From: Gemmatimonadales bacterium
Lineage (GTDB): Bacteria; Gemmatimonadota; Gemmatimonadetes; Gemmatimonadales; GWC2-71-9
Direction of reading: 5' to 3'
Length of the DNA: 64,000 nt
Assembly: GCA_035538515.1 (NCBI GenBank)
Contig: DATLKF010000032.1
Span: 36,073-100,072 of the forward strand
The position numbers were made by a program, and so were the translations under genes. Shown here one piece after another: positions 4,482 through 62,540 of the stretch. How positions within the stretch are numbered: the stretch's first letter is position 1; every line of letters starts with the position of its first letter. Under the pieces are notes generated by a model. The model was not told where the DNA came from, did no database searches, and saw only the letters and a program-made list of their open reading frames with translations.

Positions 4482-4518
4482 GCGGAAGTGGCCTCGCGGG
4501 ATCGGACTCTGGGGCGAT

Positions 4519-29170: not shown

Positions 29171-30553
29171 ATGATCCAGTCGCGATTGGTCAGACGTCTG
29201 GGGTTGCTCGCCGCCATCTGCGCCGCCTATATCGTAGCCGGCAAGCTGGGGTTGCGGCTTGCGTTCGTGAACCCGAGCGCGACGCCCGTCTGGCCTCCCA
29301 CCGGTATCGCGCTCGCGGCGTTCCTGCTTGCCGGGTACGAAGTGTGGCCGGCCATCCTGGTCGGTGCCTTCCTCGTCAACATCACGACCGCGGGCTCCAC
29401 GGCGACTTCCATCGGCATCGCTGCCGGCAATATGCTCGAGGGGTTGGTCGGCGCGTACCTAGTCAACCGGTTTGCCCGGGGGCGGCGGGCGTGCGAGCGC
29501 GCCCGCGACGTCGTCAAACTCGTCGCACTCGCCGGGCTGGCCAGCACCACCCTGAGCGCCACCGCGGGCGTCGTGACGCTCTCGCTCGCGGGCTTCGCCC
29601 CCTGGGGAGACTTTTGGCCCATTTGGTCCACCTGGTGGACGGGGGACGTGGTGGGCGATCTGGTGGTCGCGCCCGCCGTGCTCCTGTGGGCGGAGCGCCC
29701 CCGCATCCACTGGCACCGCCGTCAGGCGCTCGAGGCCGCCGCCTTGCTCGGGTGCCTTGTGGTCGTGGGCCTCGCGGCATTCGATGGGTTGTTCCCGTGG
29801 AAAGACAAGCACTATCCGCTGGAATTCCTGTGCCTCCCGCCGCTGTTGTGGGCGGCGTTCCGCTTCGAGCGGCGCGAAGCGGCGGCGGTCGTGGTGATGC
29901 TCTCGGTCTTGGCGATCTGGGGGACCCTGAGTGGGTACGGGCCGTTCGTCCGGCCGACGTTCAACGAGTCGCTGCTCCTGCTGCAGGCATTCCAAGGTGT
30001 CTCGGCCGTCATGACGCTGGTGCTCGCCGCGGTGGCGGGCGAGCGGAAGGAAGCGGAGGAGCGGCTGCGGCGGCTCGCGGTGAGCGATCCGCTCACGGGG
30101 CTCGCCAATTACCGCCAGCTGGTGCAGGCGCTGGACGTCGAGATCCGGCGCTCCTCCCGCACCGAACGGCCGTTCGCGGTGGTGTTGATGGACCTGGACG
30201 GCTTGAAGCAGATCAACGACCAGCACGGGCACCTCGTAGGCAGCCTGGCCCTGCGGCGGGTGGCGGAGACGTTGCTCGGCTCCTGCCGGGGCATCGATAC
30301 CGCTGCGCGCTTCGGCGGCGACGAGTTCGCGCTGGTGCTTCCGGAGACGGGGGACGCAGCGGCGTGGCACGTCGCCCGGCGTGTGGCCGAACGGGTGTCC
30401 CGGGACGGTGAGAAGCCGAAGCTCTCCGTGAGCATCGGGGTCGCGGTCCATCCGCGCGACGGCGCGACGCTCGAAACGCTGCTGAACGCGGCGGATCGCT
30501 CGTTGTACGAGATCAAGGCGCAGCGGCACCGCAAGACGCACATCGCTCGTTGA
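29171..30553 (+). CDS. MASE1-GGDEF diguanylate cyclase
   Basis: It has a MASE1-like multi-TM sensor region (FVNPSATPVWPPTGIALAAFLL...) and a catalytic domain SDPLTGLANYRQL...VVLMDLDGLKQINDQHGHLVG...ARFGGDEFALVLPE. TTG 29114 is an alternative start. Confidence 0.8.
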   Translation: MIQSRLVRRLGLLAAICAAYIVAGKLGLRLAFVNPSATPVWPPTGIALAAFLLAGYEVWPAILVGAFLVNITTAGSTATSIGIAAGNMLEGLVGAYLVNRFARGRRACERARDVVKLVALAGLASTTLSATAGVVTLSLAGFAPWGDFWPIWSTWWTGDVVGDLVVAPAVLLWAERPRIHWHRRQALEAAALLGCLVVVGLAAFDGLFPWKDKHYPLEFLCLPPLLWAAFRFERREAAAVVVMLSVLAIWGTLSGYGPFVRPTFNESLLLLQAFQGVSAVMTLVLAAVAGERKEAEERLRRLAVSDPLTGLANYRQLVQALDVEIRRSSRTERPFAVVLMDLDGLKQINDQHGHLVGSLALRRVAETLLGSCRGIDTAARFGGDEFALVLPETGDAAAWHVARRVAERVSRDGEKPKLSVSIGVAVHPRDGATLETLLNAADRSLYEIKAQRHRKTHIAR

Positions 30554-38023: not shown

Positions 38024-38174
38024 GGCGATGGGCGGCTGCAGTGATCCGAGGCGCGACAGCTGTGGCGCCGGCGCCTGCTTGACGGCGCGGCCTCAGGTGC
38101 GTGTTCAGCAGTCGTTTCAAAGGGCACCCGTCTTGCGCCGCACCTCACTCAACCCCTACCTCAAAGTCTCCCCG

Positions 38175-39056
38175 ATGGGTCGCGCCCTCTCGGCATCCCT
38201 CACTCTCGTGTCCCTCGGCGTTCTGGAATCCTGTCATCGCGACGAGGTGACCGCGCCACACGCGGCGTCGAGGATCGCCTTCGTGAGCGACCGGGACCGC
38301 AGGGCCGGTGACATCTACGTGATGAGTGCGGATGGATCGGCTCCCACGCGGCTGACCAACACGGTCACGCAGCTCACAGGCGCGTTCAGCAACACCGAGC
38401 CCAGCTGGTCGCCCGACGGTACGCGGATCGCGTTCACGAACGCGCATCGTGTGTTCGCCACGGAGCTCGACATTAACATCTGGCTCATGAATGCCGATGG
38501 ATCGGCCCAGCGCAGCTGACTCATGAATTTCGTACAAATATCGGAGACCAGCACCCGACGTGGTCACCCGACGGCCTGAGAATCGCTTTCAACAGCATTG
38601 CGGTGCTTATCAACGTCATCAACGCCGATGGAACGGGGGAGGTGACGCTGACGCCGCTCACAGCCGATGTCCGCCCAGAAACAACCCAGCTGGTCGCCGG
38701 ACGGAAGCCGCATTGCGTTCAGCAACCTTGTCCAGGTCTACATGATGAATGCTGACGGATCAGCCCAGACACAGCTGACGAACAGTTCGGGCTTCAATCG
38801 GAACCCGGCGTGGTCCCCAGACGGAGGGCAGATTGCGTTCCAGACCGACCGGGACGGCAACAACGAGATTTACGTGATGAACGCAGACGGATCGGCCCCA
38901 CTGAACCTGACGAATAATCCGGCCAGCGACGAGCAGCCCAGCTGGTCACACGCAACCAGCGTCTGCAAAGACCACGGTCGGCAGAAGGGCTCCGCGGGGC
39001 CAAACGATCCTGACTGCCACCCTGAGAAGGACAAGACCCCCGACTTGGCGCCCTGA
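38175..39056 (+). pseudogene. PD40 (TolB-like beta-propeller) lipoprotein gene disrupted by two frameshifts
   Basis: The lipoprotein-like start MGRALSASLTLVSLGVLESC and PD40 repeats run in frame 0 to the stop at 38517. The repeat continues in frame 2 (38516-~38680: LTHEFRTNIGDQHPTWSPDGLRIAFNS...VINADGTGEVTLT). It then returns to frame 0 (PSWSPDGSRIAF... from ~38685). Confidence 0.6.
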
Positions 39057-39185: not shown

Positions 39186-41789
39186 GTGCGCCGTCTCGTC
39201 ACCGCAGCGCTGCTGCTGGCCCTCACGCTGGTCCCGCAGGCGTGTCACCAGGATGACGTGCTGGCGCCGCACCTGACCAAGATCAAGGCGCAGCTCGGCT
39301 CCAGCCTTACCTACAAGGTTGCCTTCGAGAGTCGGGGCGACGTCTACGTGACGAACCCCGACGGCTCACAAGCGCGGCTGACGACCAGCTCCGGTCGGGA
39401 GCCCGCGTGGTCGCCCGACGGGCAACGGATCGCGTTTTCGAGCGGGCGGGACGGCCACCCGGAGATCTATCTGATGATGGCCGGCGGCTCGACGCAAACG
39501 CGGTTGACGTACACCGCGAGCGCCGTCTACTACCCGGGGTCTCCGACCTGGTCGCCCGACGGCAGCAAGATCGCCTTCTCGAAGGACGGGCACATCTTTG
39601 TGATCAGGGCCGATGGATCCGGCCTGACCCAGCTGACCAGCGGCGCATCATTCGACGATTCTCCAAATTGGTCTCCCGACGGAGGCCTGATCGCCTTCTC
39701 GAGCGACCGGGTCAACTTCAACCACGACATCTACGTGATGAACGCCGATGGATCCGGCCCGACGCGCTTGACGGACGATCCAGGGTGGGACGGCGAACCC
39801 AGCTGGTCGCCCGACGGCAAACGGATCGCGTTCACGAGCTTTAGGGACGACAGCTACGAGATCTACGTAATGAACGCCGACGGATCGGGCCAGACGCGCC
39901 TGACCAACGATCCGGCCTGGGATGGCCAGCCCAGCTGGTCCCCCGACGGACGGCAAATCGCGTTCGCGACGTACCGCGCGTCCATCAACGGCGATGTCTA
40001 CTTGATCAACGCGGATGGTTCCGAGCCGACGCGGCTGACGTACAACCTGGCAGGTGCTCTGAATCCGAGTTGGTCTCCCACCCACGAGCCCGGAAAACGC
40101 TCGCTGACCTTCGCCACGCAACCCTCGGAGACTGTCGCGGTGAATGACGCGCTGTCACCGCCGGTCCGCGTCGCGGTGGTCGACTCGCTCGGCCACCCGG
40201 TGCCGGGCGCGACCGACACGGTGACGCTCGAGCTCGGGACCAACTTGACCGGGGCGACCTTGCGAGGCACCACGAAGGTCGCGGCGGTGGACGGTGTCGC
40301 CACCTTCGGCGACTTGCGACTCGACCGGCTGGGGCGCGCCTACACACTCGCTGCCAGGGTTCCGTCGCTGAATGGGGTGGAGAGCCACCCCTTTACCGTG
40401 ACCTCGGCGGTGCGCCTGGTCTTCGTCGGCCAGCCTCCACAGGCCGTCGCAGCGAATGGGGTCTTGTCGCCTCCCGTGCGGGTCGCACTGGTGGACGCGT
40501 CCGGCAACCCCCTGCCGGGCGCGGCGGATACCGTGACCTTGGCACTCTCCGCCAACCCGAGCGCCGCCGCGCTCCAAGGAACCACGAGCGTTGCGGCCCA
40601 GGGCGGGATTGCGACGTTCGCCGACTTGCGCGTCGACCGCCCCGGCGACGGCTTCACGCTCGGCGCCACGGCGGCCGGGCGTAACCCGGCGACGAGTACA
40701 GCGTTCGCGGCGCACGTGACGTTCGCCTCCGTGGAGGCCGGGGGGGCACACTCCTGCAGCGTGACCACGAGTGGCGCGGCGTACTGCTGGGGGAGCAGCT
40801 CGTGGGGCGAAGCGGGCGACGGGAGCCAGTCGAGGCCCAACTACCGGACGAGCCCCGCGCTGGTCGTGGGCGGGCTGGACTTCGCGATGGTGAGCGTCGG
40901 CGGTGCGCACACGTGTGGCGTGACCACGTCCGGCGCGGGGTACTGCTGGGGGTTCGGATACTGGGGCCAGCGCGGGGACGGCGGTCTCGGCCAGTCGCGC
41001 GCCATGCCGACGCCGGTCGCGGGTGCGCTCGTCTTCGCCTCGATCAGCGCAGGCGGTAATCACACGTGTGGCGTCACCACACGGAAGAGAGTCTACTGCT
41101 GGGGACAAAACATCTTCGGCCAGCTCGGGGACGGGCAGATCAATACGCGAAGCTTCAGCGCGACTCCGGTACGCGCCCTGGCCAGCTCCCACTTCGCGAT
41201 GATCAGTTCGGGGACCGCGCACACCTGCGGCGTGACGGTCTCTGGCAGGGCGTCCTGTTGGGGCGCGAATGCCTCCGGCCAGCTCGGCGACGGCACCACC
41301 AGCGACCGGTCCGTACCGGCTCCCGTCGTGGCCGGAGTCAGGTTTACCACGCTGAGCGCGGGAGGTAGCCACACGTGCGGCCTCACCACAAGCGGTACGG
41401 CGTACTGCTGGGGGGACAACAGCTATGGACAGCTCGGCGACGGGACCCCCACTCAGCGGCTGAGGCCGGTCTCGGTAGCGGGCGGGCTGACCTTTACCAC
41501 GATCCGTGCCGGGGATAGGCACACGTGCGCCGTTACGGCGAGCGGCGCCGCGTACTGCTGGGGCTACAATGCGGACGGTCGGCTCGGCGATGGCACGACC
41601 ACTCAGCAGCTGACGCCAGTGCTCGTTGCGGGAGGCCTCGGCTTCACGGCGATTCGTGCCGGGACGAGCTATACCTGTGGCATCGTGAGCGGCGGCGGTG
41701 GGGCATACTGCTGGGGAGACAATGCGACGGGCCAGCTCGGCACCGGCACCCAGACCGTGAGCCTCACGCCTGCACGAGTGGTGCAATAG
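39186..41789 (+). CDS. Large lipoprotein: PD40 beta-propeller + two Ig-like domains + 7-bladed RCC1-like propeller
   Basis: The start is GTG, with the lipobox LTLVPQAC. WSPDG repeats occur at aa 75, 122, 162, 207 and 251 (and a degenerate one at 296). Two ~100-aa paralogous modules span aa 306-406 and 408-511 (SPPVRVAVVDSLGHPVPGATDTVTL / SPPVRVALVDASGNPLPGAADTVTL). There are seven HTCGVT..G..YCWG..GQLGDG repeats. Confidence 0.8.
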   Translation: MRRLVTAALLLALTLVPQACHQDDVLAPHLTKIKAQLGSSLTYKVAFESRGDVYVTNPDGSQARLTTSSGREPAWSPDGQRIAFSSGRDGHPEIYLMMAGGSTQTRLTYTASAVYYPGSPTWSPDGSKIAFSKDGHIFVIRADGSGLTQLTSGASFDDSPNWSPDGGLIAFSSDRVNFNHDIYVMNADGSGPTRLTDDPGWDGEPSWSPDGKRIAFTSFRDDSYEIYVMNADGSGQTRLTNDPAWDGQPSWSPDGRQIAFATYRASINGDVYLINADGSEPTRLTYNLAGALNPSWSPTHEPGKRSLTFATQPSETVAVNDALSPPVRVAVVDSLGHPVPGATDTVTLELGTNLTGATLRGTTKVAAVDGVATFGDLRLDRLGRAYTLAARVPSLNGVESHPFTVTSAVRLVFVGQPPQAVAANGVLSPPVRVALVDASGNPLPGAADTVTLALSANPSAAALQGTTSVAAQGGIATFADLRVDRPGDGFTLGATAAGRNPATSTAFAAHVTFASVEAGGAHSCSVTTSGAAYCWGSSSWGEAGDGSQSRPNYRTSPALVVGGLDFAMVSVGGAHTCGVTTSGAGYCWGFGYWGQRGDGGLGQSRAMPTPVAGALVFASISAGGNHTCGVTTRKRVYCWGQNIFGQLGDGQINTRSFSATPVRALASSHFAMISSGTAHTCGVTVSGRASCWGANASGQLGDGTTSDRSVPAPVVAGVRFTTLSAGGSHTCGLTTSGTAYCWGDNSYGQLGDGTPTQRLRPVSVAGGLTFTTIRAGDRHTCAVTASGAAYCWGYNADGRLGDGTTTQQLTPVLVAGGLGFTAIRAGTSYTCGIVSGGGGAYCWGDNATGQLGTGTQTVSLTPARVVQ

Positions 41790-46315: not shown

Positions 46316-47434
46316 ATGCCACAACCGACCGCCGTCAAGTGTCTGGTGGTAGACGACGAGCCCCGGCTTCGCCGGGTGCTCGTGCGGCTGCTCGAGGGTG
46401 AGGGATTCACCTGCTCGGAGGCAGGGTCCGGCACCGAGGCGCTCGAGATACTGCAGCACGACCCCGTGCCGCTCGTCATCTCCGATCTGCGAATGCCGCA
46501 GATGGATGGCGTCACCTTGCTGCGTGAGATCCTGGCGCGCTGGCCGGACACCGCGGTGATCGTCGTGACCGCCGTGGCGGAGGTGGAGAGCGCGGTCGCG
46601 TGCCTGCAGCAGGGTGCGCTCGACTACGTCGCCAAGCCCTTCCATCTGGATGAAGTGCGCGCCCGCGTGATGCAGGCGCTCGACAAGCGCCGCCTCAAGT
46701 TGGAAGTCGAGGACTACAAGCACAATCTGGAGCTGCGCGTCCAGCAGCAGGCGCGGCGCATCGAAGAGCTGTCGCTCGAGCGGCTCCAGGCGCTGGTGTT
46801 CTTCCTGGAGGAGAAGGATCCCTACACCCGCGGCCACTCGGTGCGGGTCGCCGACTACTCGGCGCGCATCGGCCGCATGATGGGTCTGCCGCAGACGACG
46901 ATGGACTTGATCGCCCTTGGCGCCGAGCTCCATGACATCGGGAAGATCGGCGTGAGCGAAGCCGTGCTCCATAAGGAGGGCAAGCTCAGCGACGGCGAGT
47001 ACCGGCACATCATGGAGCACCCCGTGATCGGCGCGCGCATCCTGGCGCCGCTGATGCGCGACGTGCCCGCGGCCCTCGCTATCGTGCGGTCCCACCACGA
47101 GCGCCTCGACGGCAAGGGGTTCCCCGACGGTCTCAGGGGAGACGCGATCCCGCTCGAGGTGCGGGTCGTCACCGTCGCCGACTCGTTCGATGCCATGACC
47201 AGTGTCCGCCCTTACCGGCCGGCGCTGTCGGTGCCCAAGGCGCTGCAGGAGCTCGAAGAGGGCAAGGGGAGCCAGTTCCACGCCCCGGCCGTCGACGCCT
47301 TCATGGCCGCTTTTCCCGATCGCACGGCGCTCCCCGTCTCCACACCGGAAATCAAACCGCTGCGTCTACCCGTCCCTGTTGCCGAGGCGCTCCAGAGCGG
47401 CGGCCGCGGGGGCCGCACCTCCACACCGAATTAA
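46316..47434 (+). CDS. Response regulator with HD-GYP domain (putative c-di-GMP phosphodiesterase)
   Basis: The receiver domain reads KCLVVDDEP...LVISDLRMPQMDG. The HD-GYP domain reads GHSVRVADY, LHDIGKIG and HHERLDGKGFPDGL. Confidence 0.85.
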   Translation: MPQPTAVKCLVVDDEPRLRRVLVRLLEGEGFTCSEAGSGTEALEILQHDPVPLVISDLRMPQMDGVTLLREILARWPDTAVIVVTAVAEVESAVACLQQGALDYVAKPFHLDEVRARVMQALDKRRLKLEVEDYKHNLELRVQQQARRIEELSLERLQALVFFLEEKDPYTRGHSVRVADYSARIGRMMGLPQTTMDLIALGAELHDIGKIGVSEAVLHKEGKLSDGEYRHIMEHPVIGARILAPLMRDVPAALAIVRSHHERLDGKGFPDGLRGDAIPLEVRVVTVADSFDAMTSVRPYRPALSVPKALQELEEGKGSQFHAPAVDAFMAAFPDRTALPVSTPEIKPLRLPVPVAEALQSGGRGGRTSTPN

Positions 47435-51295: not shown

Positions 51296-51864
51296 TCGTC
51301 CTCGCGAGCGGCAGCCCGCGGCGGCGGCAGCTGCTCGAGATGCTGGGCATTCCGTTCCGCGTGGTCGCCCCCCATGTCGAGGAGACCCTGGGAACGGCCG
51401 AGCAGCCCGAGGCGTATGTGACCCGCCTGGCCCGCGAAAAGGCCCGCAGCGTCGCGGCGCGCGAACCGGGCGCCGTGGTCCTGGCGGCCGACACGACCGT
51501 GGTGCTGCGGGGTCACGTGTTCGAGAAGCCCGCGACGCCCGACGAGGCGGTCCAGATGCTCGAGCGGCTGCAGGGACGCAAGCATCAGGTCCTGACCGCC
51601 GTGGCGGTGGCTCGCGATACCCGGCTGGAGCACGCGCTCGACGTGACGGATGTGATGTTCCGGCAGCTCTCGCGCCAGGTGATCGCCGACTACGTGGCCA
51701 CGGCAGAGCCGCTCGACAAGGCGGGCGCCTACGCGATCCAGGGGAAGGGCGCCGCCCTCGTCGAGGGCATCCATGGCGACTTCTTCGGCGTGATGGGGCT
51801 GCCGCTGCGGCTCGCGCTGGACCTGCTGGCGCGCTTCGACGTGCCTTACCGCTTCACCCGGTAG
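51292..51864 (+). CDS. maf: Maf-family nucleoside triphosphate pyrophosphatase
   Basis: It carries IVLASGSPRRRQLL and ...KAGAYAIQG... The protein is 190 aa. Confidence 0.88.
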   Translation: MIVLASGSPRRRQLLEMLGIPFRVVAPHVEETLGTAEQPEAYVTRLAREKARSVAAREPGAVVLAADTTVVLRGHVFEKPATPDEAVQMLERLQGRKHQVLTAVAVARDTRLEHALDVTDVMFRQLSRQVIADYVATAEPLDKAGAYAIQGKGAALVEGIHGDFFGVMGLPLRLALDLLARFDVPYRFTR

Positions 51865-53471
51865 ACCGGAATCCTCTTCGCCTTTCCCTTCACCTGGATC
51901 GACTCCAGGGCCTCGACGTTGGCGGGCTTCTTGAGCTGCTGGTAGAACGGCTCCGAGATGAGGATCTCGTTCGGACCGGCGGTGTCGCACAGGCGCTTCG
52001 CGGTATTCACTGCGTCGCCGATGACCGTGTACTCGAGGCGCCGGTCGGAGCCGATGTTCCCCGCAAAGACCTCGCCGAAGTTGATGCCGATCCCGATGCG
52101 CAGCTCGGGCTGGCCCTGCTCCTTCCACTTGGCGTTGAGCTTCTCGAGCGCCGTGAGCTGGCCGAGCGCGCACTCGAGCGCGCGGTCGGCATCGTCCTCA
52201 TGCGCGATGGGCGCGCCCCACAGCGCCATGATCGCGTCACCCATGAACTTGTCGAGCGTGCCACCGTTCTCGAACACCATGTCCACCATCTCGGTGAAAT
52301 ACGCGGTGAGAAGCGTGGCGATCTCGTCGGGCCCCATCGACTCGGACATGGGGGTGAAGCCGCGGATGTCGGAGAAGAAGATCACGACCGGCCGCTTCCG
52401 GCCGCCCAGCTGCACCGCGCCTTCCTGCTGCGCGATCTGCGCCGCTAGGTTGGGCGCGAAGTAGCGTTGGAAGTTGGAGAGCACGAGCGCCTCGCGCTGC
52501 AGCCGTTCGGAGCGCTGCGAGTTCTCGATCGCCACCGCGGCGAGGGAGCCGAACGCGATCAGGAACTTGAGGTCGTCGTCCGAGAACGAATGCGTCGCGG
52601 TGAGATTATCGACGTACAGGATCCCCAGCACTTTCTGGTCCGTCCCCATGAGCGGCGTGCACATCGCGCTGCGGACGCTCTGGATCAGGATCGACTTCCC
52701 CTTGAACCGCTCGTCCGCCGCGGTGTTGTCGGACAGGATCGCCACGCGGTCGTCCACCACCTTGCGCGCGATCGATTGCGGCACGTGCTTCGAGGCGGAC
52801 GACTGGGCGGTCCGTCCCCGCGAGATGCGGGGCACCAGCTCGCCCGACGGCTCCTCCAGCAGCAGGATCGACACGCGATCCACGTTCATCACCTGGAACG
52901 TGAACTCGACCACCTTGTCGAGCAGGCGGTCCAGCTCTTGCTGCTTGGATAGCTCCTTGGAGATCTCGAGCAGCAGCTCCAGCTTCTTCTCGCGCAGCTC
53001 CTCGAGTGACTTAGCGGTCACCTTGAGATGGGAGGCGCCCGACGGCGAGGCCGTCACGATCGCCGGGACGCCCCCCGACACGCTCACGGGGAGCTGTCGC
53101 ACGATGGTGCCGCCCGCCGGCTTGGCTCCGGCGAACTCGGCCGAGGGCCGCGGCACGACCTGGGGGCGCGCCGATGGGGTGGTCACTTCCTTCACGCGGA
53201 AGGCGACTTTGCCGAAGGTGATCACGTCGTTCTCGACGGCGATCGCATCGGTGATGCGGGCGCCGTTCAGGAACGTGCCGTTGGAGGAGCCGGCATCCTT
53301 GACCTTCACGCCGCCGTCGGTGAGGGAGACCTCGGCATGCCGGCGGGAGATGGTCGGATCGTAGATGGGAACGTCGCTCGTGACCGCGCGCCCGACGATG
53401 ATGATCCGGCCGGGCTGCAGGTCGATCGACTGCTCACCCGTGGTGCTCAGCAGCTTGAACACGACGGCCAA
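51846..53471 (-). CDS. FHA-GAF-class III adenylate/guanylate cyclase
   Basis: The FHA domain reads GRAVTSDVPIYDPTISRRHAEV...GSSNGTFLNG. The GAF domain reads MNVDRVSILLLE...VLGILYVDN. The cyclase domain reads VVIFFSDIRGFTPMSE...DKFMGDAIMALWGAP...TVIGDAVNTAKRL. Confidence 0.85.
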   Translation of the reverse strand: MAVVFKLLSTTGEQSIDLQPGRIIIVGRAVTSDVPIYDPTISRRHAEVSLTDGGVKVKDAGSSNGTFLNGARITDAIAVENDVITFGKVAFRVKEVTTPSARPQVVPRPSAEFAGAKPAGGTIVRQLPVSVSGGVPAIVTASPSGASHLKVTAKSLEELREKKLELLLEISKELSKQQELDRLLDKVVEFTFQVMNVDRVSILLLEEPSGELVPRISRGRTAQSSASKHVPQSIARKVVDDRVAILSDNTAADERFKGKSILIQSVRSAMCTPLMGTDQKVLGILYVDNLTATHSFSDDDLKFLIAFGSLAAVAIENSQRSERLQREALVLSNFQRYFAPNLAAQIAQQEGAVQLGGRKRPVVIFFSDIRGFTPMSESMGPDEIATLLTAYFTEMVDMVFENGGTLDKFMGDAIMALWGAPIAHEDDADRALECALGQLTALEKLNAKWKEQGQPELRIGIGINFGEVFAGNIGSDRRLEYTVIGDAVNTAKRLCDTAGPNEILISEPFYQQLKKPANVEALESIQVKGKAKRIPVYRVKR

Positions 53472-55040: not shown

Positions 55041-57086
55041 ATGCGCGTCGCGCTTACCGCTTGCGCCGTCGGGATCCTCGTGTGTCCCGAGTCCGCGCGG
55101 GCGCAGGCGTGGAACTCGGAGGGCGCGCTGAGCCTGGCGCGCCGGGCGATCCTGCGGCGCAGCGGCGCCGTGGCCGACAGCTCGCTGCACGATTACAAGG
55201 CCCAGGCCCATGGGTTCCTCTTCTTTCTGGGCGCCTTCGGTCAGGGGCTTGCCGACCCTCCTCGCCTCGTCAAGGCCGATCAGCTGGAGCTGGAAGTGTA
55301 CTGGAAGGCGCCCGCCAGCAGCAAGCAGCGGGTCGTCGGCTGGCGCGACCAGGCGCTGTTGCCCACCGACATCAACTATCATCGCGACCACCTCGGCATC
55401 ATCCAAAACAACTTCGGGGCCGCCATCCGACTGGGCGAGGGCGACGAAGTGCGCGACGTGCCCCACCCCCTCGCGCCCGCCGGTCCGGCGCTGTACGACT
55501 TCGCCCTGGGAGATACGACGACGATCGTGTTCCCCGGGCGCGAAGTGCGGGTCGTGGCGCTGCGCGTCCGACCGAAGGATTTCGGCCTCCCTCGCATCGT
55601 CGGCACCTTGTACGTGGACGCCGAGAGCGCCGACCTCGTGCGCATGGCCTTCAATTTCACGCCGCGGTCCTACCTCGATCCCGAGCTCGAGGACGTAAGC
55701 ATCGTGCTCGACAATGCGCTCGAGGAGCAGCGCTACTGGCTCCCGTACCGCCAGGAGATCGAGATCCGGCGCCGTGCCACCTGGCTGGATGTGCCGGCGC
55801 GCGGGATCATCCGCGCACGCTGGGAGATCGACGGCTACGCGTTGAACCTGGGGCTCGCGAACAGCTGGTTCGCGGGAGAAGAAATCACGTTCCTTCCGAA
55901 GGCGGAGCGCGATTCGTTTCCGTGGAAGGAGCCGCTGGCGGCCGCCCTGCAGGACGTGGCCGAGCCCGTGCGGCAGAACGACCTGGCGCGAGTGCGGGCG
56001 CAGGTGGAGGAGATCGCCGGCCGGCGCGCTCTCACGGGACTCAAGGCCCGGCGCCTCGGCGTCCGCGGCGTCTCAGACCTGCTGCACGCCAACCGTGTCG
56101 AGGGGCTGACGCCGGGCGCGGGGATCGTGCTGCGCGGCGGGGGCGAGCGCCGCGAGCTGCGGGCACGAGGGAGCTACGGCTTCGGCGACCGGCGCCCCAA
56201 GGGCGCGCTCAGCGCAGTCGACCGCCAGGGACGGGGTGCGCTCGAGGCCGGCGTGTATCGCGAGGTGCGCGACGTCGGGGACGCGCCGGTCATCGCCCCG
56301 CTCCTGAACTCGTTTTCGTCCCAGGAATTCGGGCTCGACTACGGGGACTATTACTTGGCGGACGGTGGGCGCCTGACCTACCGCCACGGGGTGGGCGCGC
56401 GCAGCGAATGGCGCGTGACGGTGGGCCGCGAGTCCATCGGGTCGCTTCCGATCGTCGCCGTCCCGGCGAACGGCCGCTTCCGGCCCAATCCCCCTCTCGG
56501 CGGCACCGGCGTAGACCTCGTGCAGCTGGGGCTCGAGCGCAAGAGCGAGGGCTTCGCCGTGCTGCGCGACCTGCACTACGAGCTGTTGCTCGAGGGAGGG
56601 CGTCGGGACGGGGGCGTGGACTTCCTGAGGCTCTCGACCGTCGGACACGTGTTGGTTCCAGTCGGCGCGACGCGAGTGCTGGTCCGCGCTCAGGGCGGCG
56701 TGGCGAGCGCGAACTTGCCGGCGCACCGCGCGTTCGTGCTCGGCGGGCGCGGCACGCTCCTGGGCGATGAGTTTCGCCGCTGGGGCGGCGCCCGCATGGC
56801 GCTGGTCCACGTCGAATGGCGCGTGCCGGTCCCGTTCGTCTCGCTCGGGATCGGTCCGTACGCGCGCACGCCGCGCACCCTCACGGTCGCGCCCTATGCG
56901 GCGCTCGGCGGGACCGGCCGACCGCTCGCTGATACACCCTGGGCCGCCACACCAGGTGTCCGGGTCACGGTTGGGCTCGGGTTCGAGTGGCTGGGTGTGT
57001 TCCGATGGGACGTGGGGTTCGGCACGACCACGCATCGCGTGGCGGTGGCGTTCGACGTGGCGCGCGATTTTTGGTCGATACTGTAA
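55041..57086 (+). CDS. Large outer-membrane protein, hypothetical (possibly surface-antigen/Omp85-like barrel)
   Basis: The signal peptide is MRVALTACAVGILVCPESARAQA. The beta-rich C-terminal third reads ...VTVGLGFEWLGVFRWDVGF... The family was not recognised with confidence. Confidence 0.5.
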   Translation: MRVALTACAVGILVCPESARAQAWNSEGALSLARRAILRRSGAVADSSLHDYKAQAHGFLFFLGAFGQGLADPPRLVKADQLELEVYWKAPASSKQRVVGWRDQALLPTDINYHRDHLGIIQNNFGAAIRLGEGDEVRDVPHPLAPAGPALYDFALGDTTTIVFPGREVRVVALRVRPKDFGLPRIVGTLYVDAESADLVRMAFNFTPRSYLDPELEDVSIVLDNALEEQRYWLPYRQEIEIRRRATWLDVPARGIIRARWEIDGYALNLGLANSWFAGEEITFLPKAERDSFPWKEPLAAALQDVAEPVRQNDLARVRAQVEEIAGRRALTGLKARRLGVRGVSDLLHANRVEGLTPGAGIVLRGGGERRELRARGSYGFGDRRPKGALSAVDRQGRGALEAGVYREVRDVGDAPVIAPLLNSFSSQEFGLDYGDYYLADGGRLTYRHGVGARSEWRVTVGRESIGSLPIVAVPANGRFRPNPPLGGTGVDLVQLGLERKSEGFAVLRDLHYELLLEGGRRDGGVDFLRLSTVGHVLVPVGATRVLVRAQGGVASANLPAHRAFVLGGRGTLLGDEFRRWGGARMALVHVEWRVPVPFVSLGIGPYARTPRTLTVAPYAALGGTGRPLADTPWAATPGVRVTVGLGFEWLGVFRWDVGFGTTTHRVAVAFDVARDFWSIL

Positions 57087-57090
57087 GGCA

Positions 57091-57201
57091 GGTTGGGGAG
57101 GCGAGATACGAGATGCGAGATGCGGGATGGGTGGTAAGGGGCCGCAATCACGCTCTCCTATCCCGGCTCCAACCTCCCCTAACCTCCCCAACCTCCCTAC
57201 C
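57091..57201. repeat. Composite palindromic repeat element, family F
   Basis: The outer perfect 11-bp stem pairs ggttggggagg (57091-57101) with cctccccaacc (57183-57193). Inside are four heptads cgagata cgagatg cgagatg cgggatg (57102-57129) and the C-rich decamers aacctcccct aacctcccc aacctccct (57171-57198). It fills the spacer before the gspE-REC gene. Confidence 0.8.
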
Positions 57202-57212
57202 TTTAGGAGACG

Positions 57213-59462
57213 ATGGCCGACACACACTTCCCGGATGAGTGGCTGACGCATTCCCTGGAGGGAGTGCTGACCCCGGAGCTCCTCGCCGAGCTGCGGGAGA
57301 AGGCTGCACCGCAGGCCACCCTGTGGCAGACCCTCGTGGCGCAGAAGGTGACGAGTGACGAGCAAATCCTCGCCGCCTTGTCGTCGCGGTTTCGGCTGAA
57401 GGTCGCCGACTCGCAGCTGGTGGACCCGACCGCCAAGGAGAAGGTGCCCGAGGCTCTAGCCCGGCGCTATCAGATCTTGCCGCTGCGCGCCACGGACTCC
57501 TATCTGGAAGTGGCGACCGCGAACCCGTTCGATCTCGACGCCGAGAAGGCGCTCGCTTTCGCGACCGCCCGCGAAGTCCGGATACTCCTGCTCGCTCCCT
57601 CCAAGATCGCCGAAAAGCTGGACGAGCTGTACCGCCCGGAGAAGGCCGTCGACAAGCTGCTCGAGAGGATGGAGGGCGCGACTGAGTTCGAGCACCTGCA
57701 GGAAAAGCCGCCGGCCCCCGACGAGATCGCCGCGTCGGAAGCCGAGGCGAGCCAGCGGCCGGTGGTCCGCCTCGTGGATCTGATCATCTCGGAAGGAATC
57801 CTCGCGCGCTCGAGCGACATTCACATCGAGCCTGAGGAAGGCGGCGTCGCGGTGCGCTACCGCATCGACGGTGTGTTGCGGCAGGTGATGAAGATCCCGC
57901 GCCAGGCCGGCCTGCCGCTGATCTCCCGTATCAAGATCATGTCGTCGCTCGACATCGCCGACCGGCTGCGACCGCAGGACGGCCGCGCGCGGGTGGCGGT
58001 GAACGGCCAGCCGATCGACCTGCGGGTGTCGACGCTCCCCGCCGCGCTGGGCGAGAAGGTCGTGATCCGTATCCTGGACTCGCGCGCCACGGTGAAGTCG
58101 CTCGACTCACTGGGACTCAACAGCAACGAAGCCGCCGGCATCAAACGGCTACTGGAGAACCACGAGGGCGTCATCCTCGTCACGGGCCCCACCGGCTCCG
58201 GCAAGACCACCACCCTCTACTCCTGCATCAACCAGATCAAGAGCGAGGGTGTGAACATCGTCACGGTGGAAGACCCGGTCGAGTATCGCATGCAGGGAAT
58301 CGTGCAGGTCCAGGTGCAGGAAAAGGCAGGGCTCACGTTCGCGGCGGCGCTGCGGTCGATTCTGCGGCAGGACCCGAACGTCGTGCTGATCGGCGAGATT
58401 CGCGACCGCGAGACGGCGCAGATCGCGGTGCAGGCGTCGCTCACGGGTCACCTCGTGCTCTCGACGCTGCACACCAACGATGCGGCGAACGCGGTCACGC
58501 GCCTCGTGGACATCGGCATCGAAGCCTACAAGATCGCGGCGGCGTTGCGCGGCGTGCTGGCGCAGCGGCTGATGCGCAAGTTGTGTCCCACCTGCAAGGA
58601 AGTCTGGATGGAGGCGCCGCCGGAGCGCCTCAAGCGGTGGATTCCGAAGGGCACGCCGCTGTATCGCGCGGCCGGGTGCCCCGACTGCGCGATGACGGGG
58701 TACCGGGGCCGCTTCTCAATCGTCGAGGTGTTGACGGTGTCGGCCGAGGTCGAGCGGCGCATCGCTGCGGGCGAAACGGCGGAGCACATCGCCGGCGCCG
58801 CCCGCCGCGCCGGGATGAAGGGGTTGTGGGAATCCGGCTTGGAGCACGTGCTGCGCGGCGAGTCCACGCTCGACGAGCTGACACGCGTCGTGGACATCCC
58901 GGACGTGGACGACCGGCCCTCGGCGTCCGCCCCTCCGTCGGCGCGCCGCCCGGGCGGTGGAGTGCCGCAGCCGCAGCAGGCGTCTTACGGGGCCGTGGCC
59001 GAGGCGGCGCCCCCCTCCGACACGCTGGCCGCGCACTTCGAGCTGCTGGAAGAGCCGCCACCGCGGCGCTCTGGCCCGCACGGGCTACCCGCGCGCAAGG
59101 TGCTGCTGGTGGACGACGAGGACAGCCTGCGCAAGGTCGTCAAGGATTTGCTGGAGCGCGACGGCTACGATGTGGCCGAAGCGCGCGATGGCGTGCAAGC
59201 GCTCGACCAGGTCGATCGCGTCGGGCCCGACATCATCGTGCTGGACCTCAACATGCCGGGGCTGGATGGCTACGGCGTGCTGTCCCACCTCCGGTCTCGC
59301 CCCGCCACCGCCGACATCCCGGTCATCGTGCTCACCGCCAAAGGCGACGAGGACAACGAAGTGCGTGTGTTCGAGCTCGGCGCGGACGACTTCCTGACGA
59401 AGCCGTTCCGTGCCCGCGCGCTCTCGGCCCGGTTGGAAGCGGTCCTGGGACGGCGGCGCTAG
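57213..59462 (+). CDS. GspE/PilB-family secretion ATPase fused to a C-terminal response-regulator receiver domain
   Basis: It has a T2SSE_N-type N-domain, Walker A VTGPTGSGKTTTLY, Asp/His boxes and the tetracysteine CPTC...CPDC. A Pro-rich linker follows. The REC domain starts at aa 629 (nt 59097): KVLLVDDEDS...IIVLDLNMPGLDG...LTKPF. Confidence 0.85.
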   Translation: MADTHFPDEWLTHSLEGVLTPELLAELREKAAPQATLWQTLVAQKVTSDEQILAALSSRFRLKVADSQLVDPTAKEKVPEALARRYQILPLRATDSYLEVATANPFDLDAEKALAFATAREVRILLLAPSKIAEKLDELYRPEKAVDKLLERMEGATEFEHLQEKPPAPDEIAASEAEASQRPVVRLVDLIISEGILARSSDIHIEPEEGGVAVRYRIDGVLRQVMKIPRQAGLPLISRIKIMSSLDIADRLRPQDGRARVAVNGQPIDLRVSTLPAALGEKVVIRILDSRATVKSLDSLGLNSNEAAGIKRLLENHEGVILVTGPTGSGKTTTLYSCINQIKSEGVNIVTVEDPVEYRMQGIVQVQVQEKAGLTFAAALRSILRQDPNVVLIGEIRDRETAQIAVQASLTGHLVLSTLHTNDAANAVTRLVDIGIEAYKIAAALRGVLAQRLMRKLCPTCKEVWMEAPPERLKRWIPKGTPLYRAAGCPDCAMTGYRGRFSIVEVLTVSAEVERRIAAGETAEHIAGAARRAGMKGLWESGLEHVLRGESTLDELTRVVDIPDVDDRPSASAPPSARRPGGGVPQPQQASYGAVAEAAPPSDTLAAHFELLEEPPPRRSGPHGLPARKVLLVDDEDSLRKVVKDLLERDGYDVAEARDGVQALDQVDRVGPDIIVLDLNMPGLDGYGVLSHLRSRPATADIPVIVLTAKGDEDNEVRVFELGADDFLTKPFRARALSARLEAVLGRRR

Positions 59463-59476: not shown

Positions 59477-59944
59477 ATGACGGAAGTGCGCGTGGCGTTC
59501 GTGGACGCCTACGTTTTGCGCCGGGTCGGCGCGGGACTCGAGGTGCTCGTGCTGCGCCGCGGCCCGGAGGGTCGTTCTCCGGGCTCGTGGGAGACCGTGC
59601 ACGGGCACATCGAGTCCGGAGAGACACCGGTGCAGGCGGCGCTGCGCGAGCTGCGCGAAGAGACGGGCCTCGAGCCGCTGCGGCTCTACAACGTCTCGCG
59701 TGTGGAGACGTTCTATCGCCACGCCACCGACGAAATCGTCCTGATTCCGGTGTTCGCGGCGCTCGTGGGCTCGGACGCGACGCCCCGGCGCTCGCAGGAG
59801 CACGATCGGGTGGAGTGGCTCACGCCGTCGGCGGCGGCCGGGCGCTTCTCCTGGCCCCGCGAGCGCAGAGCACTGGAAGACGTTTTGTCAATCCTCTGGT
59901 CCGGCGACGCAGGCTTGCTGGAAGATGTGCTGCGGATAGGTTAG
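59477..59944 (+). CDS. NUDIX hydrolase
   Basis: The Nudix box is GHIESGETPVQAALRELREETGL. Confidence 0.8.
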   Translation: MTEVRVAFVDAYVLRRVGAGLEVLVLRRGPEGRSPGSWETVHGHIESGETPVQAALRELREETGLEPLRLYNVSRVETFYRHATDEIVLIPVFAALVGSDATPRRSQEHDRVEWLTPSAAAGRFSWPRERRALEDVLSILWSGDAGLLEDVLRIG

Positions 59945-59999: not shown

Positions 60000-60389
60000 G
60001 TGAACCCGTTCTATCACCGCATCTATCGCGTCGTGCGCCACGTCCCCAAAGGCCGAGTCGCCACGTACGGGCTCGTGGCCCGACTCGCCGGCCGTCCTGG
60101 AGCCGCCCGCACCGTCGGGTGGGCGCTCTCGGCCCTTCCCGATGACTCCGATGTCCCCTGGTGGCGGGTGCTCAATGCGGCCGGCCGCATCTCTCTCTCC
60201 GGCTCGGATCACGGCAGCGTGGTGCAGCGCGCGCTCCTGTTGCGCGAAGGCGTGAAGTTCGCCCCCGGTGGAAGCGTCAACCTGGCGATGTTCGGCTGGC
60301 CGTCCGAGGCCTACGACAACGCCGTAGCCGCCCACACTCGCGCCGCCTCGTCCAAGAGATCCCGCAGGTTGAAGGGCTTGCGGACGTAG
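60000..60389 (+). CDS. MGMT-family DNA-binding protein lacking the acceptor Cys (alkyltransferase-like, Atl/YbaZ type)
   Basis: It carries VPKGRVATYGLVARLAG and PWWRVLN where methyltransferases have PCHRV. The start is GTG. Confidence 0.7.
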   Translation: MNPFYHRIYRVVRHVPKGRVATYGLVARLAGRPGAARTVGWALSALPDDSDVPWWRVLNAAGRISLSGSDHGSVVQRALLLREGVKFAPGGSVNLAMFGWPSEAYDNAVAAHTRAASSKRSRRLKGLRT

Positions 60390-62455
60390 CGCAGGCCCAA
60401 CCGCGTCAGGACATCCTCGCTCGAAGGCACAGTTCCGGCCGCGACCAACACCCGGTCCTTGAGACCGGGGTACGCCTCCACCAGCCGCTGCACGAACGGC
60501 TGATCGCTCGCCTGCACGTCGCGGTCGGCCACGATCAGGTCGAACGCACGCGTGCCCGCGAGATCGAGTGCGTGCTCGGCGTCGTGCGCCACTTCCACCG
60601 AGTGTCCCTCGCGCCCGAACAGTGCCTTGACCATGCGGCGCACAGCCGGATCGTCATCGACGAGCAGGATGGCGCGCCTGACGACCGGAGCCGCGGCGCG
60701 GGGCTCGGGCGTATCGCGACGCGCTGCGTCGACCGCTGTGGGCAGGTCCACCAGGAACGCCGCGCCTCCCCCCGGCGGACGCTCGACGACGATGCGACCC
60801 CCGTGCGCTTCCACTATCGAGAACGTGATCGACAGGCCCAGCCCCGTTCCCTGGCCCGGTTCCTTGGTCGTGAAGAACGGGGTGAACAGATGCGGCAGCA
60901 CATCGTCGGCGATGCCGGGCCCCGAGTCCGACACCCGGAGGCGCACCCGGTCGTCCGCCCAAGTCTCGACCCGAATCTGGCGCCGCCGCTGCGGCGGGTT
61001 CAACGCCACCGCTTGCGCCGCGTTGGTCAACAAGTTGATCACCACCTGCTGCAGCGCGTGTCGGTCTCCCAGCACTGGTGGCAGCGGCGCGAGGCTCTTG
61101 TCGATGACCACGTCCTTGAGCTGCAGGTCGTAGCTCATGAGCAGGAGCGTCCGGTGGATCACGTCGTTCAGGTCGAGCGGCGCCCGCTCCGCGGGGCTCT
61201 GGCGCGCGAACGTGAGCAGGTTCCGGACGATGCGGCCCGCCCGATCCGCCTGCTCGTGAATCACCCGCAGGTGGCCGCGATCCTTGGCGCCGAGCTCCCG
61301 TTGCTCGAGGAGGAACTCGGACAGACCGGCGATGGAGGTGAGCGGATTGTTCAGCTCGTGCGCCACGCCGGAGACGAGCTGTCCGACGGCGGCGAGCTTC
61401 TCGCTCTGGATCAGCTGGGCTTCCAGCGCATGCTGGTCGGTGACATCCTCCACCAGCACGACCAGGTTCTGATCGTGGGCGGGGGCGGGAATGCGGGCGG
61501 CGTTCACGCGGATAGTGCGGCCGAGCTTCGTCGAGCGCACGACGAGCGGCTGCGGCCGGCCGCCGTCGCGCGCGGCCGCGAGCAACTCCTGCAGGGGAGG
61601 GGAGAGCCCGAGGAGCGCCTCCGCCAGGTCACGGCCGATGACTGCCGGCAAGGAGGCGCCCAGGAGTGAGGCGAACGCCCGGTTGGCGCGGCGCACGCGA
61701 CCGCCGTCGTCCACCACGGCGATGCCCTCGGATAGGGCGTCGAAGGCGGTCTCCCATTGCTCCTTGGCGTGTCGTACCATCTCGAAGAAGCGGGCGTTGG
61801 CGATGACGATCGCGGCGTGGGTCGCCACGGTGGACAGCAGGCGCGCGTCCTCCGGCCCGAACCCTCCCTCGCGCGGGTTGGCGATCACGAGCGTGCCCAC
61901 CACGACGCCGTGGGAGCGCAGCGGCACCGCCGCCGCCGACTCCACGCTCACGTCGTTCACGAGCGGGGTCGGCTGGCCGGGGGGAGGGTTCCGCACCAGC
62001 TCGAGCCGGTCGCGTCCCAGCGCCCGCGCCACGAGGCCCGGATCGTCGGGACGGATCAAGGTTCCGACGAGTGGCGCCAGTGTCCCCACGGCCGCCGCAA
62101 CGTGCAGCGGTCGTCGCTCCGCGGCGCCGGCTACTCCCCCCCCGCTCGGCCCGCTGCTCCCGCCCCCCCCGCTCCCGTCCCCCTCCGGCGCCAAGGCGAT
62201 CAGGGCGCCCTGCGCATCGAGAAAGCGCATGGCGTAGCGCACCACTTGCTCCGTGATACGGTCGAGCTGCAGCGAGCCCGAGAGGATGTAGGACAGCTCT
62301 TGGAGTGAGAACAGCTCGGAGAGCCGGCGGTTCAGCTCGTCGGCGGCCTTCCGCCGGTCGCGCTCGCTCCGTTCGAGGCGGCGCTTGAGGCGGATGGCGC
62401 CCCAGCCCAGCCCGCCGGCGGCGAGCAGCAGGAGCGAAACGAGAATCGTCGGCAT
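60311..62455 (-). CDS. Hybrid sensor histidine kinase (TM-GAF-PAS-HisKA-HATPase-REC)
   Basis: The H-box is VSGVAHELNNPLTSI, the G-box is GTGLGLS, and the C-terminal REC is ILLVDDDPAVR...LIVADRDV...KPF. ATG 62455 (MPTILVSLLLL) is preferred because the extension to 62524 is AT-rich with low third-position GC. Confidence 0.85.
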   Translation of the reverse strand: MPTILVSLLLLAAGGLGWGAIRLKRRLERSERDRRKAADELNRRLSELFSLQELSYILSGSLQLDRITEQVVRYAMRFLDAQGALIALAPEGDGSGGGGSSGPSGGGVAGAAERRPLHVAAAVGTLAPLVGTLIRPDDPGLVARALGRDRLELVRNPPPGQPTPLVNDVSVESAAAVPLRSHGVVVGTLVIANPREGGFGPEDARLLSTVATHAAIVIANARFFEMVRHAKEQWETAFDALSEGIAVVDDGGRVRRANRAFASLLGASLPAVIGRDLAEALLGLSPPLQELLAAARDGGRPQPLVVRSTKLGRTIRVNAARIPAPAHDQNLVVLVEDVTDQHALEAQLIQSEKLAAVGQLVSGVAHELNNPLTSIAGLSEFLLEQRELGAKDRGHLRVIHEQADRAGRIVRNLLTFARQSPAERAPLDLNDVIHRTLLLMSYDLQLKDVVIDKSLAPLPPVLGDRHALQQVVINLLTNAAQAVALNPPQRRRQIRVETWADDRVRLRVSDSGPGIADDVLPHLFTPFFTTKEPGQGTGLGLSITFSIVEAHGGRIVVERPPGGGAAFLVDLPTAVDAARRDTPEPRAAAPVVRRAILLVDDDPAVRRMVKALFGREGHSVEVAHDAEHALDLAGTRAFDLIVADRDVQASDQPFVQRLVEAYPGLKDRVLVAAGTVPSSEDVLTRLGLRYVRKPFNLRDLLDEAARVWAATALS

Positions 62456-62480
62456 TTGCGAGTCCACTACAATAATCTGC

Positions 62481-62509
62481 TTGACCCGGCGAATCCCGAG
62501 TTCTAAATT
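62481..62509 (+). promoter_or_regulatory. Possible sigma70-type promoter for the porin-like gene
   Basis: TTGACC (62481-62486), a 17-nt spacer, then TAAATT (62504-62509), in an AT-rich divergent spacer. This is a pattern match only. Confidence 0.4.
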
Positions 62510-62523
62510 CGGGTATCCACTCA

Positions 62524-62540
62524 TTGAGAACGATTCTCAA
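62524..62540. promoter_or_regulatory. Perfect 7-3-7 palindrome TTGAGAA-CGA-TTCTCAA directly upstream of the porin-like ATG
   Basis: Read directly from the sequence. It ends 2 nt before ATG 62543 and occupies the position where an SD would be expected. Confidence 0.35.

Follow-up and report, generated by a model that had tools for sequence, protein, structure and literature searches.

A PilB/GspE-type ATPase with a tethered C-terminal receiver domain in Gemmatimonadales, a candidate phosphorelay-switched motor of type IV filaments

Introduction

The route by which two-component and chemosensory pathways reach the extension motor of type IV pili is an unsettled question. The motors PilB and PilF, known from structures of the Geobacter (5tsg/5zfr), Myxococcus (3jc8) and Thermus (5oiu) proteins, share the order of an N1 domain of MshEN fold, an N2 domain and a C-terminal domain, and have Walker A and B motifs, a catalytic Glu, a His box and a tetracysteine zinc motif. 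Here we describe a gene for a protein of this kind on contig DATLKF010000032.1 of a Gemmatimonadales bacterium (assembly GCA_035538515.1), within the 64,000 nucleotides from position 36,073 to 100,072 that were analysed as a whole and that we call the window; coordinates below are those of the window unless a locus is named. The protein shares the domain order and motifs of PilB/PilF, and its Calditrichota homologues lie in pilB-pilD-pilC-type operons. Unlike PilB/PilF, it continues into a C-terminal tether and a two-component receiver (REC) domain, and the Gemmatimonadales gene stands apart, with no pil genes nearby.

Similarity of the core to the type II secretion ATPases GspE/EpsE (Vibrio 1p9r, 4ksr and 4pht) is equally high, and the zinc motif is common to both. 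The window protein differs from these ATPases in its longer, PilB-like N-terminus, in its REC domain, in the lack of adjacent gsp genes and in the PilT-like ATPase encoded in homologous operons. A receiver fused to a ring-forming ATPase is familiar from the NtrC-type REC-AAA+ activators, in which phosphorylation controls ring assembly or activity. NtrC belongs to the AAA+ sigma54 activator superfamily and its REC domain is N-terminal and tightly packed, whereas the window ATPase is of the PilT-like ASCE kind and its REC domain is C-terminal on a disordered tether.

Vibrio cholerae MshE (PMC5013675) likewise has an N-terminal MshEN fold and a signal input domain fused to the motor; in the window protein, by contrast, the signature for cyclic di-GMP (c-di-GMP) is lost and the proposed input is a phospho-receiver at the opposite end. 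Response regulators act in trans on PilB in Synechocystis (the PATAN-REC proteins PixG, PixH and TaxP; 10.1101/2021.06.11.447907, PMC11181946), as does DrdR in Xanthomonas (PMC13507683), and for Pseudomonas PilG/PilH no interaction with PilB has been reported, according to a 2024 review (PMC11656802). Control of the pilus extension motor by a two-component receiver, as we propose here, would be common to these trans regulators and the window protein. Unlike them, the window receiver is a covalent part of the motor polypeptide, has no PATAN or second REC domain and is PhoB/OmpR-like. A natural REC-PilB fusion places signal acceptor and motor in one purifiable polypeptide, in which the effects of phosphorylation on ATPase rate, hexamer symmetry and docking are directly measurable through variants of the acceptor Asp (D678). 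Soil Gemmatimonadales and Calditrichota, for which hardly any genetics exists, have the family in abundance, and it therefore bears on how such common environmental bacteria govern their surface behaviour.

A PilB-like ATPase and a receiver domain in one reading frame

The gene and its parts are as follows.

57205..57210, + strand: Shine-Dalgarno sequence AGGAGA, two bases 5' of the ATG, by direct sequence reading
57213..59462, + strand: whole gene for the PilB/GspE-type ATPase with C-terminal receiver, 749 amino acids (aa), stop codon included
57213..57677, + strand: N1 domain, MshEN-like, aa 1-155
57747..58886, + strand: ATPase core, aa 179-558, comprising N2 and the catalytic C-terminal domain, from Pfam T2SSE and Foldseek
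58185..58211, + strand: Walker A motif GPTGSGKTT, aa 325-333, read in translation
58584..58688, + strand: tetracysteine zinc motif, CPTC (aa 458-461) and CPDC (aa 489-492), read in translation
58893..59093, + strand: disordered Pro/Ala-rich tether, aa 561-627, from composition, model confidence and low conservation
59094..59459, + strand: REC domain, aa 628-749, with the D678 codon at 59244-59246

Listing and translation of open reading frames (ORFs) gave an ATG start and 749 codons in one frame, as an earlier, preliminary description of this DNA had stated. The check with Pfam that it had proposed returned all three domains of its reading (N-domain, ATPase core and C-terminal REC), each above the gathering cut-off: MshEN at residues 69-144 (E 2e-16, 60.1 bits, cut-off 23.1), T2SSE at residues 179-558 (E 1.6e-132, 442.1 bits, cut-off 24.9) and Response_reg at residues 630-741 (E 1.9e-33, 115.4 bits, cut-off 30.2). 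The motifs that it had quoted, GPTGSGKTT, CPTC/CPDC, the acceptor Asp in IIVLDLNMPGLDG and the Lys in LTKPF, are all in the translation. An AlphaFold2 model built on an alignment with 46 homologues had a mean predicted local distance difference test score (pLDDT) of 80.7 and a predicted template-modelling score of 0.52. The N1 domain (pLDDT ~85-90), the ATPase and the REC domain were confident, with disorder at residues 156-177 and 568-623.

By the criteria of domain content, zinc motif and predicted fold, the window protein is a PilT-like ATPase of the PilB/GspE assembly-ATPase subclass. In Foldseek comparisons the ATPase core matched Thermus PilF 5oiu with a template-modelling (TM) score of 0.90 and a root-mean-square deviation of 2.3 Å, and Geobacter PilB 5tsg with a TM score of 0.90; matches to PilF/PilB ranged from 0.88 to 0.90, against 0.80 for Vibrio EpsE 1p9w, and the best E-values were to Vibrio GspE 4pht. 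Residues G325-K331 of the Walker A motif are invariant in all alignments, as are the catalytic Glu of Walker B (E395) and H413/H420 of the His box, and the four cysteines C458, C461, C489 and C492 vary little or not at all. The T2SSE score, the invariant catalytic residues and the fold match make the ATPase domain look functional.

The receiver is equally complete. D634/D635, the acceptor D678 in IIVLDLNMPGLDG, T708 and K730 in LTKPF are all present; among 77 orthologues no substitution occurs at D635, D678 or K730, and T708 is conserved in at least 90%. In 116 REC domains from diverse cluster representatives, the acidic-pair Asp is kept in 108, the acceptor Asp in 109, the Thr/Ser in 110 and the Lys in 107. 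Residues 629-747 form five strand-helix units in a (beta-alpha)5 pattern at a pLDDT of ~90, and the closest solved receivers are of the PhoB/OmpR type. The REC domain thus looks functional and of the two-component type, to judge from its residues and predicted fold. The mean frequency of the top residue among orthologues is highest in the REC domain (0.87), followed by the ATPase core (0.83), and lowest in the linker (0.40). Since the catalytic residues of both domains are conserved, both are under purifying selection as working parts.

Between them lies a linker that is Pro/Ala-rich, as first described, and that measures 67 aa in place of the ~75 aa given originally. It holds 14 Pro and 11 Ala, together 37% of its residues, and pLDDT falls below 50 at residues 568-623. 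Because the model is confident for the REC domain and disordered in the linker, the receiver is predicted to fold on its own and to hang from the ATPase by a flexible tether. Inside this variable linker a FELLEE patch (aa 609-614, 59037-59054) is semi-conserved, ~15 residues N-terminal of the REC domain, and could be a docking motif.

The N1 domain is unlikely to bind c-di-GMP. In MshEN domains the c-di-GMP motif consists of tandem 24-residue repeats, RLGxx(L/V/I)(L/V/I)xxG(L/V/I)(L/V/I)xxxxLxxxLxxQ, with 5-residue spacing, and imperfect motifs can still bind (PMC5013675, PMC10333796). The window protein retains both helical repeats of 24 residues, still five residues apart as in the canonical domain. 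Its best match to the tandem motif covers 8 of the 22 defining positions, with the Arg, both Gly and the Gln absent, and the best score for a single motif is 4-6 out of 11 in 75 of 77 orthologues. We therefore rejected c-di-GMP, acting through MshEN, as the main input, on the 8/22 match to the tandem motif. At the N-terminus itself (aa 1-16, 57213-57260) is an FPDEWL patch in which D8 and W10 are invariant from Gemmatimonadales through Calditrichota, in the position where MshE bears the first of its RLG motifs for c-di-GMP binding; the patch may mediate an interaction particular to this family.

The fusion is widespread

A protein identical to that of the window is listed by NCBI, under the name 'type II/IV secretion system protein', from a Gemmatimonadales metagenome-assembled genome (MAG), and an independent Logan assembly contains the identical ORF too. 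When one genome of each GTDB species was scanned, 80 loci with 57-92% identity emerged, 79 of them titled as Gemmatimonadales or Gemmatimonadota MAGs. In 76 of the 80 the orthologue is encoded by one uninterrupted ORF, 729-789 aa long; the rest are cut by contig ends or by a local frameshift. The preliminary description had named resequencing that splits the ORF into two genes as one result that would overturn it, and these 76 other species-level genomes keep the ORF whole. An assembly or frameshift artefact was rejected on the same grounds, together with the two identical copies.

A HMMER scan of 1.84 billion representatives of 50%-identity clusters, with the best 150 matches re-scored using domain hidden Markov models from the orthologue alignment, placed a REC domain C-terminal to the ATPase in at least 112 clusters and N-terminal to it in 2. 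The best-150 list favours fused proteins, so that 112 is the minimum number of such clusters and should not be read as a frequency; relative to the 19,307 representatives at E <= 1e-30, the fused share is at least about 0.6%. Among the matches listed, 85 complete three-domain proteins have a median pairwise identity of 37% and linkers of 12-142 residues. Organism assignments within this wider family cover Gemmatimonadota and Calditrichota, and judged from the sequences collected the fusion is fixed across Gemmatimonadales and Calditrichota. A profile search for the taxa of distant fused homologues brought back almost exclusively the Gemmatimonadales proteins already collected. We conclude that the T2SSE-REC fusion is a widespread, database-visible architecture that is common in environmental bacteria and not rare.

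It had earlier been called uncommon. That does not hold for its occurrence (at least 112 clusters, fixation in two groups and an IMG label, 'PilB-like protein/CheY-like', for such proteins), and it holds in that our literature searches found no paper characterizing or experimentally studying a PilB/GspE-REC fusion. The words 'receiver' and 'fused' are absent from the 2024 review of PilB regulation (PMC11656802), and the MshEN paper mentions solely that MshEN can associate with REC domains (PMC5013675). As far as we found, then, the architecture is well represented in databases and has no experimental study in the literature.

The C-terminal modules of the ATPase clade vary. P0215 has REC with TPR repeats, P0136/P0273 has three REC domains and P0160 has a double zinc ribbon and REC. 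P0130 and 13 similar representatives (14 in all, ~1000 aa) are tandem ATPase-ATPase proteins.

Homologues in pilus operons and beside phosphorelay genes

P0146, a distant fused representative 39% identical to the window protein, comes from Calditrichota, including Caldithrix abyssi. At two Calditrichota loci (L082 and L083) a full type IV pilus operon begins with the fused gene. After it come genes for a Peptidase_A24 prepilin peptidase, a platform protein of the T2SSF family, N_methyl pilins (two or three), a PilM_2-like protein, PilO, a secretin and a PilT-like ATPase. The Pfam match to PilO is in L083 only, as is a small protein with a weak T2SSC match. Membership of the fused gene in a pilus operon is thus a direct observation in Calditrichota. 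Four further loci have the following arrangements.

L088 (P0131, 50% identical, GC content 0.70): fused gene, then a single-domain REC gene, an unknown gene and an N_methyl pilin gene
L089 (P0207): an Hpt gene (3049-3393 of the locus) overlaps the start of the fused gene, with motAB and flagellar genes around
L090 (P0273): in a row, Hpt (7982-8314 of the locus), MshEN-REC, MshEN-T2SSE-REC x3 and MshEN-T2SSE-REC
L091 (P0166): orphan

In two lineages unrelated to each other (L089 and L090), Hpt genes thus stand directly 5' of genes for REC-fused ATPases. Because L082, L083 and L088 have pilus genes and L089 and L090 have Hpt genes, the family appears to be connected with the machinery of type IV pili as well as with His-Asp phosphorelays, and no other feature of gene context speaks as strongly as the Hpt neighbours for a receiver that is a real relay target.

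A conserved orphan locus in Gemmatimonadales

In Gemmatimonadales the fused gene has other company. A Pfam sweep of the window genes returned no T2SSF, Peptidase_A24, N_methyl, Secretin or PilM/N/O match, and Calditrichota PilD, PilC, pilins, PilO and secretin, used as tblastn queries, had no match at E <= 1e-3 in the window or at 81 related loci; the sole tblastn matches were those of the PilT-like query onto the ATPase gene itself. The earlier statement that the window has no gspF/pilC, pilin, secretin or pilM-Q genes is borne out by both searches, and the orphan position is conserved in Gemmatimonadales. Two of the neighbours bear on the readings discussed below.

59477..59944, + strand: NUDIX hydrolase gene, 155 aa, beginning 14 nt after the ATPase stop codon, from Pfam NUDIX
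60311..62524, - strand: membrane-anchored hybrid histidine kinase, GAF-PAS-HisKA-HATPase_c-REC, from Pfam, a candidate upstream phosphodonor

Conservation of the neighbourhood was counted among loci with enough flank.

Upstream 681-aa DUF5686-like protein: 58/60 loci
FHA-GAF-cyclase: 44/46 loci
Maf: 40/44 loci
NUDIX: 69/76 loci
Hybrid kinase: 47/65 loci
Atl-like protein: 28/74 loci

The preliminary description had linked the ATPase to the hybrid kinase at 60311-62455; the ORF extends to 62524 on the minus strand. The kinase is syntenic with the fused ATPase in the 47 of 65 loci just given and absent from the two loci (L085 and L087) whose ATPase has no REC domain, an association that at n=2 is not significant. 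Specific pairing of this kinase with the fused receiver is plausible, though we consider it less likely than not.

Type IV pilus genes are found in Gemmatimonadota from all environments but marine (Mujakic et al. 2023, PMC10581226). In the RAST tables of that study, PilM is present at 0.83-0.95 copies per Gemmatimonadota genome, the same as ribosomal proteins, and GspD, GspE and GspF are annotated in many of these genomes (PMC10581226). The most economical reading would be that the machine is encoded elsewhere in the genome and that the fused gene supplies its assembly motor.

A proposed filament motor switched by phosphorylation

We propose, as the probable account, that the protein is an assembly motor of type IV filaments, of the PilB/GspE class, switched by a phosphorelay at D678 of its tethered receiver. 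The ATPase would act as a hexameric assembly motor of the type IV filament superfamily. Phosphate would pass from a histidine kinase, for which the neighbouring hybrid kinase is one candidate, to D678; from a hybrid kinase it would probably travel by way of an Hpt protein. Phosphorylation of D678, if it occurs, would switch motor activity or engagement with the machine, in one direction or the other. The phosphorylated receiver may alter its docking on the N1/N2 domains or on the ring; alternatively, receivers may dimerize through their alpha4-beta5-alpha5 faces between ring subunits. Such an input would stand in for the c-di-GMP input at the N-terminal MshEN domain of MshE-type ATPases. In Gemmatimonadales the gene would have parted from the other pilus genes, which would lie elsewhere in the genome, travelling with a NUDIX hydrolase gene instead, and the protein would drive a pilus.

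Several observations weigh against this account. Platform, pilin, peptidase and secretin genes are absent from the 64-kb window and from +/-10 kb of the 81 related loci, and because no machine genes are near, a pilus role in this organism is indirect. The NCBIfam equivalog cut-offs are missed for both GspE (TIGR02533, 558.8 bits against 630.25) and PilB (TIGR02538, 530 bits against 675.65). A hybrid kinase normally requires an Hpt relay protein, and although the kinase encoded nearby is of this hybrid type, no Hpt gene was found near the Gemmatimonadales ATPase gene; a tblastn search of the window and 81 loci for Hpt gave nothing below E 0.5, a weak test as Hpt domains diverge quickly. REC-fused homologues at L090 and L091 are orphans too, which could point to a non-motor, signalling role. 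Finally, the recurrent association with NUDIX is unexplained by a pure pilus-motor model.

The NUDIX association and a possible signalling role

The NUDIX gene, listed in the preliminary description as a neighbour, is confirmed by Pfam (E 1.4e-20, 74.1 bits, cut-off 21.1) and may, on the pattern set out below, be more than a bystander. Its Nudix box, GX5EX7REUXEEXGU, is intact (G43-HIESG-E49-TPVQAAL-R57-E58-L-R-E61-E62-T-G-L). The nearest solved relatives are 3ees (a 'probable pyrophosphohydrolase', which we take to be Bdellovibrio RppH), MutT and Ap4A hydrolases, and no NCBIfam equivalog cut-off is reached. The gene is probably co-transcribed with the ATPase gene, as their spacing suggests. 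In 42 of 68 loci the distance of the NUDIX gene from the ATPase stop codon is between -27 and +155 nt, and in 24 of the 68, all Gemmatimonadales, hisC, hisB and hisH are inserted between the ATPase-REC and NUDIX genes (for example at 12337-14847 of L040). Most loci with the his insertion belong to a single Gemmatimonadales subclade (about 64-67% identity), and a few are closer to the window locus.

In some of the closest relatives without REC, the NUDIX domain is fused to the ATPase. MshEN-T2SSE-NUDIX proteins lacking REC form three 50%-identity clusters, P0133, P0169/P0443 and the frameshifted P0145. Their ATPase cores are 53% (P0133) and 46% (P0169/P0443) identical to that of the window protein, and over the whole length of the window NUDIX protein their C-terminal domains are 46% (P0133) and 37% (P0169) identical to it; the two fusion proteins P0133 and P0169/P0443 are 56% identical to each other. 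At L085 the fusion (P0169/P0443, 10001-12259 of the locus) has the neighbours seen in the window, DUF5686-like (a 693-aa gene), Chorismate_bind, Maf and Dtd, and because these neighbours are the same the fusion is the positional orthologue of the window ATPase. L087 (P0145, 6045-8205 of the locus) combines the same synteny with a NUDIX fusion and has one frameshift on an error-prone contig. Shared synteny is thus seen for two NUDIX fusions; the P0133 contig is too short to show neighbours. In a further Gemmatimonadota protein, P0230, PAS-GGDEF occupies the C-terminal position of the REC domain.

The C-terminus might, then, be an exchangeable regulatory slot (REC, NUDIX or PAS-GGDEF), with the Gemmatimonadota ATPase forming a functional unit with a NUDIX hydrolase, a proposal we consider doubtful. 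If correct, it would be an undescribed coupling of a PilB-type motor with the hydrolysis of nucleotide derivatives and a new kind of input for type IV filament motors: a nucleotide ligand controlling the motor might be sensed or degraded by the NUDIX enzyme, or the orphan ATPase might act mainly as a signalling device.

A first alternative to the motor account, which we regard as unlikely, is that the protein is a signalling NTPase and not a filament motor, forming with the NUDIX hydrolase a module with a swappable C-terminal slot, whose ATP turnover or nucleotide state would report to another pathway, for example exopolysaccharide production or nucleotide signalling. The three NUDIX-fusion clusters, two of them in Gemmatimonadota-type synteny, the NUDIX gene directly 3' of the ATPase gene in 42 of 68 loci, PAS-GGDEF in the REC position and the conserved orphan position, shared with other fused homologues, speak in favour of such a role. 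Myxococcus xanthus PilB is reported as a signalling protein for exopolysaccharide production (PMC5544727). However, every motor feature is kept in the ATPase, including the zinc motif and the N1 domain, and the Calditrichota homologues lie in full pilus operons. In canonical systems it is the zinc motif and the N1 domain that contact the machine (GspE-GspL and PilB-PilM/PilC). The his insertion in 24 loci means that tight co-transcription of ATPase and NUDIX genes is not universal, adjacent genes can fuse through simple deletion, and our literature search found no paper linking NUDIX and PilB.

Pilus extension or type II secretion

A second alternative keeps the motor and changes the machine: the protein would be the GspE of a type II secretion system and not a pilus extension motor. 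GspE is the top NCBIfam match, slightly above PilB (558.8 against 530 bits), the best Foldseek E-values are to Vibrio GspE 4pht, one Calditrichota operon has a weak T2SSC match, and GspC, GspD, GspE and GspF are annotated in some Gemmatimonadota genomes. In phmmer searches of the PDB, PilB (~378-380 bits over residues 17-560) and GspE (375 bits) were about equal. Yet both equivalog cut-offs are missed, the N-terminus has the full length of PilB, with residues 10-561 aligned to the PilB model, and the Calditrichota operons end in a PilT-like retraction ATPase, typical of type IVa pili. Because of this N-terminus, the PilT-like gene and the closer fold match of the core to PilF/PilB than to EpsE, we favour a pilus-type motor on these sequence and model comparisons, and consider the type II secretion reading improbable.

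Very unlikely, finally, is a receiver that is no activity switch but a phosphate sink, a relay intermediate or a localization tag, docking for example at a kinase array or the cell pole: the long disordered tether would suit a domain that reaches out and docks, three REC domains or REC with TPR repeats are present in some homologues, and PilH has been proposed as a phosphate sink, with PilG/PilH affecting PilB localization with no known direct contact (PMC11656802), but the REC domain is the best-conserved part of the protein, including its alpha4-beta5-alpha5 region, which argues for a specific effector interface, and a sink has no need of covalent linkage to the motor.

Other features of the window

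The conserved upstream neighbour is of uncertain membership in the system.

55041..57086, + strand: 681-aa secreted protein, weakly DUF5686-like

It had been described as a large outer-membrane protein, a label that turns out to be a guess: it has a signal peptide, and its sole match is to DUF5686, below threshold (26 bits, cut-off 39.2). No PDB or NCBIfam match was obtained, and its single-sequence AlphaFold2 model has a pLDDT of 31.9. The Atl-like neighbour of the preliminary description corresponds to a DNA_binding_1 (Atl/MGMT-like) gene at 60000-60389.

Between this gene and the ATPase gene is an intergenic leader (57080-57215, 126 nt) with G-rich (GGTTGGGGAGG) and C-rich (AACCTCCCC, three times) repeats that pair as a long hairpin (free energy -54.4 kcal/mol, z -2.0). 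A riboswitch or conserved leader 5' of the ATPase gene was rejected: Rfam gave zero matches at gathering thresholds across the whole window, and CCTCCC and GGGAGG occur together in 3 of 74 orthologous leaders. A sigma-70 promoter scan around the ATPase gene, uninformative for the phylum Gemmatimonadota, found nothing.

Elsewhere, 39186-41789 encodes an 867-aa lipoprotein-like protein with PD40 beta-propeller repeats, a Big_1 domain and an RCC1-like propeller, and just 5' of it, at 38028-39056, two short PD40 ORFs may be fragments. A 240-aa ORF at 17607-18329 has the Plug domain of TonB-dependent receptors and no barrel; a truncated gene or a gene-calling error is possible. The window is also rich in genes for nucleotide second messengers (4435-5208, 5842-6648, 29114-30553, 46316-47434, 23100-24113 and 51846-53471), a set made up of three GGDEF proteins (one with MASE1), a REC-HD_5 protein of the HD-GYP type, a DHH-DHHA1 phosphoesterase and an FHA-GAF adenylate/guanylate cyclase.

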